From IMG/VR virus record IMGVR_UViG_3300039405_000004: 64,000 nt of DNA; one strand, given 5' to 3'. The position numbers and the translations under genes were made by a program. Source of the stretch: a virus. This document shows, piece after piece, positions 6,338 through 61,607 of the stretch (positions within the stretch are counted from its first letter, which is position 1; every line of letters starts with the position of its first letter). Below the pieces are notes generated by a model, which was not told the origin of the DNA, made no database searches, and saw only the letters and a list, made by a program, of their open reading frames with translations.

Positions 6338-7620
6338 GCGATCTGCTTCGCCTGAAGCACCTGGAGCACGTCGCCGACTACGAAGAGGGCGACGACCTGA
6401 TCATCAAGGCGAGAAGCAAGCGCCCCTCGCCGGAGCGGCAGTGCTGCCTGCTGGTGAACTTCGTCAAGAATGGCCGGAAGACCATGCGCTTCCGTGACGA
6501 GCCGAACCGGCGGCAAACCGTGTTCATCGAGATCGACCGCCAGCGCTTCAAGTGCAAGGAATGCGGCAAGCCGATGTACGAGGGCCTGCCCGACATCGAC
6601 ACCCGCCACGACATGACCAAGAAGCTGCTCCGGCGCATTCAGAAGGACGCCGTCGAGTGGCCGTTCAATCAGGCAGCCCAGGTCAATGGCGTCGATGCCA
6701 AGCAGGTCGAGCGGATCTTCAAGGACTACGCCACCCGGAAGCTCAAGGGCTACGTGCCGACGATGCCGCGCGTGCTCGGCATGGATGAGAAGTACATCCA
6801 GAAGAAGGCCCGCTTCATCCTCGGCGACATCGAACGGGGCGACATGCTCGACATGCAGCCGTCCCGGAAGGTGCTGGACCTGAACCGCTACTTCGGGGCC
6901 ATGCCCGGCAGAAACCACGTTGAGGTGGTCTGCCAAGACATGTGGAAGGACTATCGCGGCATCACCAAAAAGCTGTTCCCGAATGCCGTCACGGTGATCG
7001 ACAAGTACCACGTTCAACGGACATCCAATCGTGGCGTGGAGGCGATCCGGCGCCTGTTCCAGGGGGACGTGTCGAGATCTGAGCGCATTCACCTTAAGAA
7101 CAAGCAGAAGGTCTTCCTCGCTCGTTGGGAGACCGCGAAGCCCTTCACCCGCAACCAACTGACCGCCCTGTTCACCTTCTTCCCCGAACTCAGGCACGCC
7201 TACGAGTGGAAGGAGGCCTACTACGAGATCTACGACGCGACCTCGAAAGCCGAGGCGAGCGAGCGCATGGATCAGTGGCTGCGGGATCTGCCACCCGCCT
7301 ACCGTCGCCCATTCAAGCCGAGCATCGACGCCATCAACAACTGGCGGCCGTGGATCTTAAACTACTGGGACCACCTCCAAACCAACGCCTATGTCGAAAG
7401 CCTGAACAATCTCATCGGCCGCATGAACATGCAGGGCGTCGGCTACGACCTCGAAACGCTGCGGGCGAAGGCCCTGCTCAAGCACGGCCGGATCGGCGAG
7501 GAGATCCGGCTCGGCATCACCCGCGAAGGCCACGGACACGGCGCGCTGCGGACCCGGAAGTTTATCCTCGGCGTGCCGCTATCAACCCTGGAAGCCGATT
7601 TAGCGGCGGGTACGTTCTGA
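6334..7620 (+). CDS. ISL3-family transposase
   Basis: Zn finger (RFKCKECGK), GMDE, CQDMW, IDKYHV and TNAYVESLNNLI motifs; intact 428 aa. Confidence 0.9.
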   Translation: MSDLLRLKHLEHVADYEEGDDLIIKARSKRPSPERQCCLLVNFVKNGRKTMRFRDEPNRRQTVFIEIDRQRFKCKECGKPMYEGLPDIDTRHDMTKKLLRRIQKDAVEWPFNQAAQVNGVDAKQVERIFKDYATRKLKGYVPTMPRVLGMDEKYIQKKARFILGDIERGDMLDMQPSRKVLDLNRYFGAMPGRNHVEVVCQDMWKDYRGITKKLFPNAVTVIDKYHVQRTSNRGVEAIRRLFQGDVSRSERIHLKNKQKVFLARWETAKPFTRNQLTALFTFFPELRHAYEWKEAYYEIYDATSKAEASERMDQWLRDLPPAYRRPFKPSIDAINNWRPWILNYWDHLQTNAYVESLNNLIGRMNMQGVGYDLETLRAKALLKHGRIGEEIRLGITREGHGHGALRTRKFILGVPLSTLEADLAAGTF

Positions 7621-54259: not shown

Positions 54260-55084
54260 ATGGCCAAAACCCGCACCAAGCCTACGAAGGCGGCTTCTCC
54301 AGTTGTGCCCAATCAGGCGGATGAGCCGTTCATCACCTCGTACAAGGGCTTCAATCGCGACCTGACGTGCCGCGGTTTCAAGTTTGAGATCGGCAAGACC
54401 TATACCGTCGAGGGCAAGGTTGAGGCGTGCAGCAACGGTTTCCATGCCTGCGAGCACCCGCTCAACTGCTTCGACTACTACGCCCCGGCTACGTCGCGGT
54501 TCTTTGAGGTTCGTCAGTCTGGCGAACTCGCCCGGCACGCTGCCGACACGAAGGTCGCTTCCGCCAAGATCACGCTCGGCGTTGAGCTTTCTATCGGCGA
54601 TATGGTCGCCCGTGCGGTGAAGTGGGTGTTTGATCAGGCGAAGCCTGAGAACACTGAGCACGCCACCGGGGACCAGGGTGCCGCGTCCGCCACCGGGCAC
54701 CGGGGTGCCGCGTCCGCCACCGGGGACCAGGGTGCCGCGTCCGCCACCGGGTACCGGGGTGCCGCGTCCGCCACCGGGTACCAGGGTGCCGCGTCCGCCA
54801 CCGGGTACCGGGGTGCCGCGTCCGCCACCGGGGACCAGGGTGCCGCGTCCGCCACCGGGGACCAGGGTGCCGCGTCCGCCACCGGGAAGCATAGTGTTGC
54901 CTGCGCCCTTGGCGAGGATGGATCCGCTTCGGCCGACGAGACCGGCGCAATCGTCATCGTCAATCGCGATCCGTTCAGCGGTGCCATCCGGCGGATTTTT
55001 GCATCGAAGGTCGGCGAGAACGGCATCAAGGCTGGCGTCTTCTACCGCCTGTCGGATGACGGCCTGCCCGTCGAGGCTGCCTAG
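54260..55084 (+). CDS. Phage protein with GAASATGxx nonapeptide repeats
   Basis: YKGFNRDL.CRGF.FE.G...GFHACEHPL..F.YY, followed by the repeats. Confidence 0.85.
   Translation: MAKTRTKPTKAASPVVPNQADEPFITSYKGFNRDLTCRGFKFEIGKTYTVEGKVEACSNGFHACEHPLNCFDYYAPATSRFFEVRQSGELARHAADTKVASAKITLGVELSIGDMVARAVKWVFDQAKPENTEHATGDQGAASATGHRGAASATGDQGAASATGYRGAASATGYQGAASATGYRGAASATGDQGAASATGDQGAASATGKHSVACALGEDGSASADETGAIVIVNRDPFSGAIRRIFASKVGENGIKAGVFYRLSDDGLPVEAA
54662..54886 (+). repeat. 27 bp coding tandem repeat, 8 full units plus a partial
   Basis: GCCACCGGG-NNNNNN-GGTGCCGCGTCC. Confidence 0.95.
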
Positions 55085-56882: not shown

Positions 56883-57388
56883 ACGCCCCCGTCCGCATCC
56901 CGCTCCATCAGGAGATGGCCGTTGCCAGCCAAGTGGCGGCCGCTCTGATCGCCGCGGGCATTGAGCCGGATGATCCCGACTTCACCGAGCTGATGGCCTC
57001 GGAGACCGACGTGCTGGAGCGTCTGCGCCGGATCCTCCGCGCCGCGACCCGCACAGAGGCCCACAGCGAGGCGCTGGCGGGCATCATCAAGGACAACCGG
57101 GAGCGGAAGGCCCGGCTGGACAGCAAGGCTGAGCGGCTTCGTGGCGTGGTTCTGCAGGCCATGGCCGAACTCGGGCTGAAGAAGCTTGAGGGGCCCGACC
57201 TGACCGCCACGGTCGGCGCCGGCAAGCCCAAGGTGGTCATCACCGACGAAGCCGCCCTTCCGGACGACGCCTGCGTCTTCAAGCGTGAGCCGAGCAAGGC
57301 CGCCATCGCCGCCGCACTCGCCGATGGCCCGGTCGCCGGAGCCGAGTGGGGCAACCCGCAACCCGTTCTTACCGTGAGAACGCGATGA
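56879..57388 (+). CDS. Siphovirus Gp157-like protein
   Basis: Coiled coil; V.ITDEAALP...EPSKAAI..AL..G.V.GA. Confidence 0.8.
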   Translation: MNAPVRIPLHQEMAVASQVAAALIAAGIEPDDPDFTELMASETDVLERLRRILRAATRTEAHSEALAGIIKDNRERKARLDSKAERLRGVVLQAMAELGLKKLEGPDLTATVGAGKPKVVITDEAALPDDACVFKREPSKAAIAAALADGPVAGAEWGNPQPVLTVRTR

Positions 57389-57864
57389 GCGAGGCTCGCA
57401 AGCGCGCGGACGATTTCGTCTCGTTCATGCGACAGGTCGCGATCGGGGCCGACAAGGGGTCCTGCTGGCTATGGACTGGCGGCGGCGGTGATGGTCGCTA
57501 TGGCCATTTCTGCATCGACGGTGGTTCGGTGAAAGCTCACCGATGGATCTACGACTATGTCGTTGAGCCAATCGATGATGGCCTCGTGCTCCGGCACCGC
57601 TGCGACAATCCTAAGTGCGTGAACCCGGCGCACTTGGAGCCCGGCACTTCGTCGCAAAACACGCAAGATGCGATTGAGCGCGGTCGCTGGCCGGATCGAT
57701 CCGGCGAAAAGCATCCGATGGCCGTCCTTGATGCGGAGAAAGTCGTTCGCATCCGAAATTTAGCGGCGCTTGGCTACACGCAACACTGGATAGCGGAACA
57801 GTGCGGCATCTCCCGGCAGCACGTCGGGAAAATCGTTCGGCGCGAATGCTGGGATCATATCTGA
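57385..57864 (+). CDS. HNH endonuclease
   Basis: CWLWTG...YG.F...AHRW...LRHRCDNPKCVNPAHLEPGT. Confidence 0.9.
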   Translation: MSEARKRADDFVSFMRQVAIGADKGSCWLWTGGGGDGRYGHFCIDGGSVKAHRWIYDYVVEPIDDGLVLRHRCDNPKCVNPAHLEPGTSSQNTQDAIERGRWPDRSGEKHPMAVLDAEKVVRIRNLAALGYTQHWIAEQCGISRQHVGKIVRRECWDHI

Positions 57865-58502: not shown

Positions 58503-58912
58503 CCGGCCGCGCCTTCCTTATCTTGGCCAACGCCGCCGTCCGTGAGCGGGCTATCAAATGGATCCAGGGCCTGCCTGAGGGCACGCGCGTGGAGTTCAAG
58601 GGGCCGCGCCGGTCCCTCGACGCCAACGCGCTCCTGTGGGCTCGCTTGGCCGACATCTCCAAGCAGGTCGACTGGTACGGCCAGAAGCTGTCCAGCGAGG
58701 ACTGGAAGGACGTGCTCAGTGCGTCCCTTCGCAAAGCCCGCGTCGTGCCCGGCATCGATCCCGGCACCTTCGTCCCGCTCGGCATGCGGACCTCGGACAT
58801 GAGCAAGGCCGAGTTCAGCGAACTGCTGGCCCTGATCGACGCCTTCGCCGCCGAGCGCGGTGTCGTCTGGTCGGATGCCGGCTTCGAAGATGCCGCTCGG
58901 AGGGCCGCCTGA
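58499..58912 (+). CDS. ninB: NinB family protein
   Basis: RRSLDANALLWARL.DIS.QV.WYG..LS.EDWK...G.RTSDMSKAEFSEL. Confidence 0.9.
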   Translation: MTGRAFLILANAAVRERAIKWIQGLPEGTRVEFKGPRRSLDANALLWARLADISKQVDWYGQKLSSEDWKDVLSASLRKARVVPGIDPGTFVPLGMRTSDMSKAEFSELLALIDAFAAERGVVWSDAGFEDAARRAA

Positions 58913-59079
58913 TGTCCTGGCTCAACTGGCTGAGCCTGTTCCTCGGCGTCGGCATTGGCGTCGTCCTCTCGCTCATCTGCGCCTTCTGCATCGGCGTCCG
59001 GGTCGCCCGCGAAGACCTCCGAGAGGAGGACAAGGAGCGGGAGCAGTTTCGCAGGCTTGAGGATGGAGACGGCAAATGA
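58912..59079 (+). CDS. Small membrane protein
   Basis: One TM segment plus charged tail. Confidence 0.55.
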   Translation: MSWLNWLSLFLGVGIGVVLSLICAFCIGVRVAREDLREEDKEREQFRRLEDGDGK

Positions 59080-59459
59080 ACACCGGCCTTCCCATCCCGC
59101 CGAGCGAAGTCGCCGAGATGATCACCCTCGCAGAGCAGGGCCTGTCTCGCACGGACATCGCCGCCATCATGGATCGGTCCTACCGGACCGTCCGCAAGTA
59201 CGTCGGGCATATTGCCTGCGGTGAGGCTGGACGTCCTGCCGACGTCGATCGCTACCGCCGGATGCTCAGGGCCGTCTCTTCGGCTGGGTACGGCGACAGA
59301 GACGGCATCGCCCGCCGCTTCGGCCTCAAGGACGCTGACGTTCTCCGTGTCGTCCTCGTGAGAGCCCGTCGCGCTGTTGCTGCCGCTCTCCCCGTTACCG
59401 ATGCCCTGGGCGCCGGGAAGGCGGGTGAGGACGAGAGGAGAAGACATCATGGCGCGTGA
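59076..59459 (+). CDS. HTH protein
   Basis: GLSRTDIAAIMDRSYRTVRKY. Confidence 0.65.
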   Translation: MNTGLPIPPSEVAEMITLAEQGLSRTDIAAIMDRSYRTVRKYVGHIACGEAGRPADVDRYRRMLRAVSSAGYGDRDGIARRFGLKDADVLRVVLVRARRAVAAALPVTDALGAGKAGEDERRRHHGA

Positions 59460-59814
59460 CTTCGTCGCCGAGCCCTCGCCCTTCGGGTCGAGCCCTTCGG
59501 TCTCGCCGGCTGACGCCGCCACGGTCTCTCGCGCGGGTGAGCCGCCGCCGCGACCGCTCAGCAGCCTCACGCCGCAAGAGATCAAATGGTGTTCCCGGCG
59601 CGTCTGTTTCCTGTGCGAGCAGAGGCTGAGCACCGACACGTGCGGTGGCTTGTTCGAGCGCTGCACTCAGGAAACGATGGATCGGCGTCGCGGCAATGCT
59701 CTCGCGACGTATCGGCCTCGTGCGCCAAAGATCGAAGCCCGTAGGGCAGAGATGCGAAGCAGCTCTGTCGAAGACGAGAGCTTGGTGACCGTAAGGTCAG
59801 GCGCCCATGAATAG
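59449..59814 (+). CDS. Cassette-encoded Cys-rich protein
   Basis: Both termini are encoded by repeat ends; core WCSRRVCFLCEQ...CGG...C. Confidence 0.55.
   Translation: MARDFVAEPSPFGSSPSVSPADAATVSRAGEPPPRPLSSLTPQEIKWCSRRVCFLCEQRLSTDTCGGLFERCTQETMDRRRGNALATYRPRAPKIEARRAEMRSSSVEDESLVTVRSGAHE
59451..59534 (-). repeat. Cassette left-end hairpin repeat L2
   Basis: GGCGCG start, TTCG hairpins, CTCGCGC end. Confidence 0.8.
59734..59806 (+). repeat. Cassette right-end hairpin repeat R2
   Basis: GAAGCCCGTAGGGCAGAG...TGACCGTAAGGTCA-GGCGCCC. Confidence 0.85.
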
Positions 59815-59882
59815 CCCCGTCCCCCTCCCCCTCCCCCTCGCCCTAGCCGGCGCCATCGCGATCACCGCGGGAGAAAAGCATC

Positions 59883-60497
59883 ATGGCTGACCAGACGATG
59901 TACGTCCGCATCGTGGGCGAACCGTTTCTGTCGCGCGCCAAGGCGTACCGGGAGCAGCTTGCGGCCTGGGGCGACGCTTGGAAGCCATTCGTCCAGGAGC
60001 GTGGCGGTGATGGCGTCAGCGTCAGCGGCAAGGCGCTCAGCTTCAAGAACGGCAAGGCCCCCGAGGGCTGGACGCGGCCGGCCGGGAACGCCGGCATGAG
60101 CCATCCGAAGAAGGGCCACCCAGATATTGAAGCGCTGGCCCACCTCCGAGAGAAGTCCCCGCGCCCAGACAGCCGTGACGTCTTTGGTGACGAGATCCCG
60201 CTCAACCTGTCCTGGGAGGCGGAAGGCGGCGGCCGCGGAAGCTGCGGGATCGGCAACATGGGCCTGATCCTCAACGGCCCGCACGTCGGCTGGGCCGGCG
60301 ATACCTACCTCGGGTGGACGGCCGACCCGGCAGCCGCCGTGGCGGCCCATCTCGCGGCCTACCCCGATCACCGCATTGTTGGGGCGGCCGCGACGTGGAC
60401 GATGCCCGCCGGTCTGATCCGGCTCACCGAGGCCGAGTACGAGCTGATCTTCGCTCAGCACAAGGTCGACCTGGAGCGCGCCGGAGAGGCCGCATGA
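59883..60497 (+). CDS. Hypothetical protein
   Basis: GGAG RBS; 204 aa. Confidence 0.65.
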   Translation: MADQTMYVRIVGEPFLSRAKAYREQLAAWGDAWKPFVQERGGDGVSVSGKALSFKNGKAPEGWTRPAGNAGMSHPKKGHPDIEALAHLREKSPRPDSRDVFGDEIPLNLSWEAEGGGRGSCGIGNMGLILNGPHVGWAGDTYLGWTADPAAAVAAHLAAYPDHRIVGAAATWTMPAGLIRLTEAEYELIFAQHKVDLERAGEAA

Positions 60498-60550
60498 CCT
60501 CCCTCGCCCTGGCCGCCGGTCTGCTCGCCTACACCGGAGGAGAAGCGGGT

Positions 60551-60634
60551 GGGCGCGTCCTTCGGACCGGGCTCTCATCCTTCGGATCGGACCCCTTCGG
60601 GTTCCGCCGGCTACGCCGTTTCGATCCCTCGCGC
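60551..60634 (-). repeat. Cassette left-end hairpin repeat L3
   Basis: GGGCGCGTCCTTCGGAC...GATCCCTCGCGC, similar to L1. Confidence 0.85.
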
Positions 60635-60648
60635 GGAGGTGCCTTCTG

Positions 60649-61221
60649 ATGGGCTATTGGGATACGCCCGGCCAGTCCGACGAGTGGTACACGCCACCAG
60701 CTGTATTCGCCGCTCTCGGGTGCCACTTTGACTTAGACGTAGCTCCGGCTCGATTTGGACGCGACTACGTTCCCGCGGATGCTCGCGTCTCAGGATGCGG
60801 GCTTTCGGCACCATGGCATGGGACAGTGTGGTGCAACCCGCCTTTCGGCGGCCGAAACGGCATTGAGCCATGGCTCAACCGGTTCTTTAGTCACGGCGAT
60901 GGCATCGCCCTTGCGCCTGATCGGACGTCCGCGCCGTGGTTCTGGTCGGCGTGGCGGAGAGCCGACACGGTACTGTTCACTCGTAAGATCAGGTTCATCC
61001 GTCCGGATGGTACGGAGGGCGTGTCTCCATCTAATGGCACTGCATTATTCGCAGTCGGCGATCGTGCTTCGGCAGCGCTGTCACGAGCAGCGCGACGTGG
61101 GTTTGGCATTCTAGCACTTCCCGGCTCAGCGCCCGCGCAAGCAATCGAAGTCCGAAGGACAGAAACGCAAAGCGGTTCTGCTTGCGAGAGTGCGGTCGGC
61201 GTAGCCGAGGCGCCCAAATGA
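60649..61221 (+). CDS. Phage DNA N6-adenine methyltransferase (Dam-type)
   Basis: DEWYTP..VF..LG..FDLDVA...W.G.VWCNPPF. Confidence 0.88.
   Translation: MGYWDTPGQSDEWYTPPAVFAALGCHFDLDVAPARFGRDYVPADARVSGCGLSAPWHGTVWCNPPFGGRNGIEPWLNRFFSHGDGIALAPDRTSAPWFWSAWRRADTVLFTRKIRFIRPDGTEGVSPSNGTALFAVGDRASAALSRAARRGFGILALPGSAPAQAIEVRRTETQSGSACESAVGVAEAPK
61147..61215 (+). repeat. Cassette right-end hairpin repeat R3
   Basis: GAAGTCCGAAGGACAGAA...TTCTG...TCGGCGTAGCCGA-GGCGCCC. Confidence 0.85.
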
Positions 61222-61364
61222 CCGCCTCAGACGCCTTCTGTCTCACCGTCGCCATGGTCGGCGGCACCGCGCTCACTGCGGTGACATGGCGCCTCGACAA
61301 GCCCGTCCGCTCAGCAGGCTCAAGGCGGACTTGGCTGCGCTGCCTCATTCGATCGAACCGATAG
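61218..61364 (+). CDS. Small membrane peptide
   Basis: ATG directly after R3; hydrophobic N-terminal half. Confidence 0.4.
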   Translation: MTASDAFCLTVAMVGGTALTAVTWRLDKPVRSAGSRRTWLRCLIRSNR

Positions 61365-61376
61365 GAGACTGACGCC

Positions 61377-61607
61377 ATGGAGATTAAGAACGCGACCACG
61401 GTTCACCGGCTCTGGGGATCTCTCACCGACGCCGAACTGATCGCTGTCTTCCAATACGACACTGACGCCAAGAGCTTCTGTGAACGCTGCATTGAGCAGC
61501 AGCCCAAAGAAGCAGCCCTCATCTGGGTCAGCCACTACGACGGCAAGATGAACATCGTTCGTCATGCCTCCAAGGCCGCCCCCGCGACCGAAACGTCGGG
61601 AGCCTGA
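61377..61607 (+). CDS. Hypothetical protein
   Basis: AGGAG RBS. Confidence 0.6.
   Translation: MEIKNATTVHRLWGSLTDAELIAVFQYDTDAKSFCERCIEQQPKEAALIWVSHYDGKMNIVRHASKAAPATETSGA

Follow-up and report, generated by a model that had tools for sequence, protein, structure and literature searches.

T4-type phages carry promoter-early stem-loop (PeSL) cassettes (Arbiol et al. 2010, PMC2839356; Comeau et al. 2014, PMC4122927), in which recombination between the motifs shuffles, deletes and replaces genes among close relatives (PMC2839356; PMC4122927). Transposase-less units with terminal inverted repeats are represented by the MICs and MITEs (reviewed in PMC10969869; MICs are mentioned in PMC4337579). 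Rickettsia palindromic elements (RPEs) have been described by Ogata et al. (2000, 2002, as cited in PMC10969869), and very small mobile elements, MPME1 and MPME2, are found in mycobacteriophage genomes (e.g. PMC3029335).

Phage accessory (moron-like) genes are known to shuffle at gene boundaries, and the sequences that mark such boundaries are rarely defined. Here the boundaries are explicit. Structured repeats of ~88 nt, with unusually clean Watson-Crick covariation, are present in the window (the whole stretch of viral DNA analysed here, 64,000 nt of IMG/VR record IMGVR_UViG_3300039405_000004), in a prophage of Methylorubrum rhodinum and in no fewer than 46 other loci of IMG/VR. These arms are embedded in coding sequence, are polar to the gene and lie at the breakpoints where related phages carry different cargo. 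We concentrate on one unit of the window, cassette 2, which an initial annotation had described as inserted exactly at a start codon.

Layout of cassette 2 and its arms

The features of cassette 2 and of its neighbours are collected in Table 1. According to the covariance model the unit spans 59450-59806 (357 bp), and the excision defined in the initial annotation (GGCGC..GCGCC plus CAT) removes 358 bp; the cassette is bounded as proposed, and the proposed size of 356 bp has to be corrected. The ribosome binding site and the ATG (59449-59451) placed at the left tip are both present, with ACATC between them, and the ATG is followed by GCGCG (GCGCGTGAC). The upstream ORF ends at a TGA located 8 nt inside the left arm. 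On the + strand the right arm ends in ...CAGGCGCCC (...GGTCAGGCGCCC) at 59806, with ATGAATAGC (ATGAATAGCCCC) directly after it. The right tip indeed lies at a start codon, since it abuts the ATG (59807-59809) of a conserved mini-ORF. The stop codon TAG of the cassette ORF overlaps the mini-ORF start (ATGAATAG), and the mini-ORF stop in turn overlaps the start of the next gene (ATGGCTGA). The mini-ORF peptide is MNSPVPLPLPLALAGAIAITAGEKHHG, and not MNSPVPSPSPSP as initially read; its equivalent in the sibling prophage L011 is MTSVLLPLALAGAIAITAGDDA. Deletion of an extra T in the right-arm loop brings the cassette ORF in frame into the mini-ORF, so that the right-hand ATG of the window (59807) may be a restart codon.

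Table 1. Coordinates of cassette 2 and adjacent features in the window.
Feature	Coordinates	Strand	Remarks
Upstream ORF, 127 aa	59076..59459	+	HTH domain (Pfam HTH_23 and others) with the C-terminal tail of a small membrane protein joined to it
Left conserved linker block	59383..59439	+	Ends in GAGGACGAGAGGA; 95% identical to L011 5341-5397, 92% to L010 5006-5053
Shine-Dalgarno-like GAGGAGAAG	59435..59443	+	5 nt upstream of the ATG; direct sequence reading
Cassette ORF, 121 aa, MARDF...GAHE	59449..59814	+	ORF listing; traverses left arm, cargo and right arm
Left (5′-type) arm, TGGCGCG...CTCGCGC	59450..59541	+	Four-hairpin type; covariance model 29.9 bits
Cargo, small Cys-rich domain	59542..59714	+	173 nt, ~58 aa, 5 Cys; P0025 73% identical over 67% of the ORF, mainly cargo
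Right (3′-type) arm, inverted copy of the left-arm repeat family	59715..59806	-	Covariance model 87 bits; + strand end GGCGCCC
Conserved hydrophobic mini-ORF, 27 aa, right linker	59807..59890	+	59823-59874 96% identical to L011 6481-6532
Next gene, 204 aa, no family assigned, search anchor	59883..60497	+	23 homologues; no Pfam match

The cassette ORF has no Pfam match. Its conserved cargo is Cys-rich, as annotated, and somewhat shorter than the ~65 aa given at the time. A protein atlas returned weak zinc-knuckle-like leads (0.89-0.91), and the cargo may bind zinc.

Repeat finding tied cassette 2 to two other places in the window. The initial annotation had pointed to the GGCGC and GCGCC ends of the unit. 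A 5-nt match of this kind is meaningless in DNA of 68% GC; in the alignment, however, the homology of left arms to the reverse complements of right arms spans ~88 nt, beginning at GGGCGC and ending at GCGC. The arm fold, derived by eye, consists of a terminal stem GGCGC(N)/(N)GCGC, a hairpin A, and a helix of 6 bp, interrupted in its centre by a pyrimidine mismatch, which encloses hairpins B and C; in two arms, the right arm of cassette 2 among them, 26/26 modelled pairs are formed. The covariance model was built from six arms of the 3′ type and under-scores four-hairpin 5′ arms. It detected exactly eight arms in the 64-kb window, that is four convergent pairs, and cassette 2 resembles cassettes 1, 3 and 4 in having two ~88-nt arms that are found by one model and converge (+ then -). 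The right arm of cassette 2 was matched with an E value of 6e-14 by a model built from other arms; the left arm (E 0.0025) is the weakest of the eight. This left arm carries a T in place of the first G of the consensus (TCA/TGGCGCG versus TCA/GGGCGCG, the stroke marking the tip), which creates the ATG. It is ~88% identical to positions 2944-3032 of L074, a metagenomic phage contig, and its terminal stem was recovered by folding. The right arm shows 2 differences in ~92 nt with the right arm of L074. Folded as DNA, the right arm reproduced the architecture (z = -3.1), and the left arm proved more degenerate (z = 0.45). The two arms of cassette 2 are real, and both are members of a structured repeat of ~88 nt.

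The covariance model also matched arms in sibling prophages and in the Methylorubrum rhodinum prophage, and a tip-to-tip pattern scan of IMG/VR identified 46 loci. From 50 sources (the window and about 47 viral contigs) we collected 93 arms, which comprise 33 convergent pairs, with cargo of 131-1697 nt, and 27 solo arms. One 5.4-Mb host genome, searched with limited sensitivity, contained arm matches only in its prophage. In the arm alignment, paired cells amount to 96.6%, versus 70.9% in shuffles and 31-49% in slid-partner controls; the alignment was fitted to the model and leans towards structure, and the margin is large. Changes on both sides were observed in 24/26 pairs of the model. RNA structures used in a single orientation usually show an excess of G.U pairs. 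The arms do not: ~2,240 cells contain 12 G.T pairs and 15 C.A mismatches. Because G.T is no commoner than C.A, we infer from the pair statistics that the arms act as DNA hairpins or cruciforms.

Other identities considered for the arms were rejected. An Rfam RNA family was set aside because no match was found: the window gave none at gathering score, and region 59300-61400 gave only chance-level matches at E<=10. A protein-level linker or tail motif does not agree with arms that are inverted copies translated in several frames. Pairing between left and right arm was likewise discarded as a selected feature, within-pair complementarity being no higher than that between cassettes (identity of 0.62 for the two arms within a cassette versus 0.63 between cassettes, p = 0.82).

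Elsewhere in the window, positions 54607-54984 are taken up by a tandem array, family D1, in which at least 10 copies of 135 nt overlap with a period of 27 nt; it is probably a repeat inside a coding region. Judged by eye, a free-standing endonuclease of the HNH type may be encoded 1.6 kb upstream of cassette 2, by the ORF at 57346-57864 (...HRCDNPKCVNPAHLE...).

Start codons, cargo exchange and the slot in sibling prophages

The arms are polar. Where gene direction was clear, a GGGCGCG start was present in 13/16 5′ arms versus 1/16 3′ arms, and cassette 2 conforms to this polarity (TGGCGCG at the tip of its left arm, GGGCGCC at that of its right arm). In single-gene cassettes one ORF runs over arm, cargo and arm, starting 1-33 nt upstream of the 5′ arm and stopping mostly 0-42 nt after the 3′ arm; the ORF of cassette 2 starts at -1 and stops at +5. 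In a set of 89 non-redundant arms, the positions upstream of the tip show a peak of ATG at -15 (11 arms) and one of ATG/GTG at -18 (12 arms), with one frame throughout, and start codons occupy -15/-18 in 24/89. A T at -1 is the family consensus (60/89 arms). The arrangement AT/G at the tip was observed in 8 arms versus 11.5 expected from base frequencies, and an outward-facing CAT at -3 in only 3 of the 89. The 5′ arms of the TCA type share a leader, RTGAGYGAG..TTCA, in L001, L041 and L014, which belong to different phages, and the ATGAGCA of L074 resembles a shortened copy of it. Start codons cluster just upstream of 5′ arms, and the link to translation starts is real. The link, read in the initial annotation as a target preference, probably belongs to the cassette instead. 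A preference for initiation sites is in itself indistinguishable from cassette-borne start codons combined with gene-boundary selection. An in-frame bias of cassette length was considered and rejected (length mod 3, 12/10/10).

Many 3′-type arms (L037 7898, L050 356, L042 1341, L058 2013 and others) read GGAGGTT/GGGCGATG, which in antisense is a canonical Shine-Dalgarno sequence with an ATG facing into the cassette and in sense a CCTCC just after the arm. In cassette 3, a mini-ORF passes through the left arm in the frame GGG CGC and its stop TGA overlaps the ATG of Dam (TGATG, 60647-60651), which suggests translational coupling through the arm.

Arms and cargo are found in different combinations. 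Protein searches identified P0025, with the same cargo as cassette 2 and a different right-arm peptide; P0026, with the same arms and an unrelated cargo; and P0027, with the same right arm, another cargo and only MSMA in place of the left arm. The closest relatives, P0001 (87% identical), P0030, P0025 and P0027, lie on Logan, ENA or JGI contigs and are known as proteins. The DNA of P0026 was recovered by a codon-degenerate scan as contig L074, whose cargo and upstream gene are unrelated to those of the window. Since homology between the window and L074 starts on the left at CATGGCGCG, behind a different upstream gene, the CAT and the tip ATG travel with the arm. The ATG of cassette 2 can therefore hardly be a captured one, CATGG being kept with the arm in L074 and arms of the TCA type bearing their own leader. 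On the right, L074 reads GCGCCC/AGCAAT, without CAT. The right arm is ~97% identical between the window and L074 and the flank just outside it ~60%; so sharp an edge at the arm tip is also expected of a mobile unit. The L074 unit lies between perfect 4-bp direct repeats, AGCA (unit plus repeat, 441 nt), and its removal in silico produces an in-frame mini-ORF, MSNPPIPTTPSSTGA, with an ATGA overlap with the upstream gene and a start resembling the MNSPVP of the window.

Two loci of a single IMG/VR contig, L050 and L053, have near-identical arms and an 11-nt leader (CGACTGATTCA) with cargos of 173 and 515 nt. One convergent arm pair, in L017 (721-2502), surrounds the gene of a phage integrase (PF00589, 395 aa). 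A Pfam search of the larger cargos detected no transposase; it gave one integrase, an N6/N4 methylase, a RyR domain and otherwise nothing. PF00589 was present in 3-4 of 5 arm-bearing phage records, a scan made outside the window, and absent from one complete arm-bearing phage genome, on which ground an obligatory tyrosine recombinase was rejected.

The sibling prophages L010 and L011 were reached via the HTH protein. The upstream ORF of the window is 97% identical to theirs over aa 1-102 and divergent thereafter, its tail being the C-terminus of a 54-aa protein of L011 and also of P0028-P0030. Homology with the sibling L011 ends at 59439, 10 nt before the ATG of cassette 2. L011 shares both the left and the right block (Table 1), and between them carries two ordinary genes, ~1.08 kb, without arms. 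The difference between the window and L011 is larger than the unit, because the divergence extends beyond both tips, beginning 10 nt left of the unit and ending ~16 nt right of it. In both L011 and L010 the left linker continues into ordinary genes. The slot of cassette 3 is occupied in L011 by another gene, and the arms of cassette 4 are kept in L011/L015 around a cargo of different length (229 nt vs 460 nt). The slot of cassette 2, part of the early operon of the prophage, is hypervariable, and a short conserved linker delimits it on either side. Replacement and insertion are compared here through one sibling, L011; no recombination intermediate was seen.

Further joints can be read from proteins. 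P0030, a small membrane protein, ends in ...GEDERRSHHDA, resembling the joint of the window itself, and may represent the same left joint in another phage. P0028 and P0029 end in ...GEDEN/GRAA.., and at the protein level the arm looks joined 12 nt further left.

We found no empty allele of cassette 2 in viral, genome and metagenome contigs, using the anchor gene and the linker and mini-ORF patterns. The 204-aa neighbour, searched alone and as a 22-protein alignment, gave distant matches in these contigs (33-54% identity). The two matches with readable upstream context (L001/L002) did not show the upstream context of the window. A 401-genome family sample contained a related gene (46% identity) in only one genome, plus one marginal match (E 8e-4). 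The exact linker patterns and a codon-degenerate mini-ORF pattern matched only the L011 contig or by chance, and blastn against GenBank phages matched only the NinB gene. The precise insertion put forward initially is thus not borne out: the empty allele proposed as its check was not found, and L011, the only sibling with both flanks, differs over a segment larger than the unit.

Short hydrophobic mini-ORFs with ATGA-type overlaps are located between genes in the window (59807-59890, 60495-60551 and 61218-61364), in L011 (6474-6542 and 6791-6850) and in L010 (about 6343-6500, ~55 aa). In the window and L011 they measure ~19-48 aa (e.g. MTSLALAAGLLAYTAGKAA, MTSVLLPLALAGAIAITAGDDA, MTASDAF...). 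No other blocks are conserved so well between the sibling prophages (95-97%), and the mini-ORFs therefore resemble linkers, or boundaries, at which modules are exchanged. At 59380-59383 of the window, as compared with L010/L011 from 4305 onward, the HTH gene is fused to the small-membrane-protein tail. Relative to the siblings, the window is without the 0.7-1.0 kb between ...GCTGTTGC and CCGCTCTCCCCG, which holds the HTH C-terminus and one or two genes.

Exchange, insertion and other explanations

The initial annotation had taken the CAT on both sides of cassette 2 as a possible 3-bp duplication. CAT is present at 59448-59450 and 59806-59808, and CATG is in fact present on both sides. CATG is its own reverse complement and thus forms a direct and an inverted repeat at once. 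Direct repeats lying no more than 3 nt from the tips were as frequent in 32 pairs as in mismatched controls (9 vs 9.5 for k=3, 4 vs 3.4 for k=4). A stricter symmetric test found 4-bp flanking repeats in 3/33 pairs vs ~0.3 expected, two of them extending to 5-6 bp; repeat lengths are inconsistent (3, 4, 5 and 6 bp) and most pairs have none. A minority of pairs may therefore bear a microhomology signature, with no fixed duplication length, and these repeats may leave room for an insertion process using microhomology. In CAT..CAT, the A is needed by both start codons and the right C corresponds to the G of the mini-ORF ATG; the left C alone is without explanation. The repeat is therefore a by-product of two start codons, of the T that is consensus beside an arm and of the CATG palindrome, and not a target-site duplication; in L074 CAT stands on the left only.

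The analyses show a structured, polar arm pair, reassortment of arms and cargo, alternative contents of the slot and no fixed duplication. On balance we lean towards cassette 2 being a complete small gene, a phage accessory-gene module of a widespread family, framed by inverted ~88-nt arms, which is moved or exchanged by recombination and not by fixed-duplication transposition. The coding region is framed by two inverted, self-folding repeats, one of the 5′ type (GGGCGCG...) and one of the 3′ type; on the left the slot is lined by the small-membrane-protein tail, on the right by the hydrophobic mini-ORF. Of the two start codons at the tips, the left one belongs to the arm lineage and the right one is that of the mini-ORF itself. 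Recombination, its joints falling on or close to the arm tips and linkers, would have brought the module to its slot and would be the way in which cargo is swapped. The data do not point to a cut-and-paste transposition that leaves a duplication of fixed length. As the left start codon is part of the cassette, the exchange unit appears to be a ready-to-translate gene and not a naked ORF that needs to land behind a ribosome binding site.

A mobile unit made of left arm, cargo and right arm could instead have been inserted precisely at the start codon of the mini-ORF, duplicating CAT or CATG and capturing the ATG, with initiation sites as its preferred target. We regard this as quite unlikely. 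Removal of 59451-59808 does give a junction that looks functional, the ribosome binding site and ATG standing in front of the mini-ORF, with the upstream ORF ending in ...RRRHHE at the same TAG and an exact flank joint ...GAAGACATCATGAATAGC..., and the mini-ORF is conserved in L011; yet no empty allele was found. L074 can be read in the same way, with its AGCA repeat, its in-frame 441-nt unit and a restored mini-ORF, but there CAT is kept on the left and not on the right, and ATGAGC matches the start of the arm-linked leader in other phages. Start codons 1-33 nt upstream of most 5′ arms would fit such targeting, and a mobile unit would also explain why identity between the window and L074 falls from ~97% to ~60% precisely at the right tip; arms, however, are also found in mid-ORF (cassettes 1 and 4) and alone (27 solo arms). 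The excess of 4-bp repeats under the symmetric test (3/33 pairs, two extending to 5-6 bp, vs ~0.3) speaks for insertion, and the variation of repeat length from 3 to 6 bp, together with the absence of repeats from most pairs, against it. Paired arms are moreover only 62% identical, no associated transposase was found, and one complete arm-bearing genome is without tyrosine recombinase. Equally doubtful, in our view, is a scheme in which each arm is an independent small palindromic element, comparable to an RPE or a MITE, spread or converted singly into coding DNA, so that a cassette is a gene that gained an arm at each end. The 33 convergent pairs, with their strict difference between 5′ and 3′ types, are not expected of random single insertions, and leaders and trailers are conserved with the arms. 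Such independence would nevertheless agree with the 27 solo arms, with the terminal inverted GGCGC/GCGC stem that each arm possesses, and with left and right arms that do not co-evolve. It would also suit the right arm, whose ~97% identity stands out between a cargo that is unrelated and a flank of weak similarity, P0027, which keeps the right arm and has only MSMA at the place of the left one, and the different reading frames of the arms between ORFs.

Arms working at the RNA level only, as mRNA stabilisers, processing sites or translation control just after the start or before the stop, unrelated to mobility, are the reading to which we attach the least weight; we think it very unlikely. The distance of 15-18 nt between start codon and 5′ arm in 24/89 arms is about the edge of the initiating ribosome footprint, ORFs end 0-42 nt after the 3′ arm, and the polarity of arm types follows gene direction. 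Against these points, G.U is no commoner than C.A mismatches (12 vs 15), the 3′ arm is an inverted copy, so that the mRNA carries the complementary strand, Rfam gave no match, and the arms coincide with breakpoints of cargo exchange between related phages.

Returning to exchange by recombination, a more far-reaching version, which we consider unlikely though not to the same degree as the preceding alternatives, would see the arms as folded-DNA recombination sites like attC, with the GGCGC tips as crossover points. By this means temperate phages of GC-rich alphaproteobacteria would take up and trade small genes as complete translational units, start and stop codons included, in tightly coupled operons; each cassette would have two inverted sites, and no dedicated enzyme is known. 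Were the arms shown to be sites of recombination, modular exchange in these phages would become open to direct mechanistic tests.

Comparison with known systems

The open-access papers that we searched contained no description of this armed cassette family. The PeSL system of T4-type phages is its closest functional counterpart. In both cases short repeated structured motifs surround non-essential phage genes in hyperplastic regions. PeSLs, however, are intergenic direct repeats that comprise a promoter and a terminator, whereas the arms are 88-nt multi-hairpin elements arranged as inverted pairs inside ORFs. Region 58800-61500 of the window contains no promoter-like site and one terminator-like site, which is inside the Dam gene, with none within an arm.

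With integrons, the cassettes share a single-gene content and very diverse cargo, and with attC sites an element conserved in fold over sequence, inverted core motifs at both ends of the folded unit and covariation restricted to Watson-Crick pairs, as in folded DNA. They differ in having two inverted, translated units per cassette instead of one attC, and in tips that read GGGCGC/GCGCCC without a GTTRRRY core. A PF00589 recombinase is present in 3-4 of 5 arm-bearing phage records and absent from one complete genome. MICs and MITEs resemble the cassettes in carrying passenger genes flanked by inverted terminal repeats and no internal transposase. In contrast to them, no fixed-length duplication is seen here, and the arms of one unit are long, internally structured and ~62% identical; this identity (0.62) equals that between unrelated cassettes, and Pfam detected no transposase among the larger cargos. 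Moreover, all such elements that were detected lie in phage DNA; a search of limited sensitivity in one 5.4-Mb host genome matched the prophage alone.

RPEs, as far as they are presented in the citing review, are palindromic repeats of ~100-150 bp from an alphaproteobacterial lineage that lie in frame within protein genes and are translated, much like the arms. In the same account they are single insertions in housekeeping genes with a conserved peptide, whereas the arms are phage-borne, are read in several frames and form oriented pairs around cargo.

Mycobacteriophage MPMEs have short repeats (~11 bp), a fixed ORF thought to be a transposase, and clean empty sites. Like the cassettes they are very small units (~440 bp) in which inverted repeats enclose a single small ORF, and close relatives may have or lack them; here, on the other hand, cargo varies and the search for a clean empty site found none. 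PeSLs, attC sites, MICs and MITEs, RPEs and MPMEs each share some features with the armed cassettes, and each departs from them in at least one defining feature.
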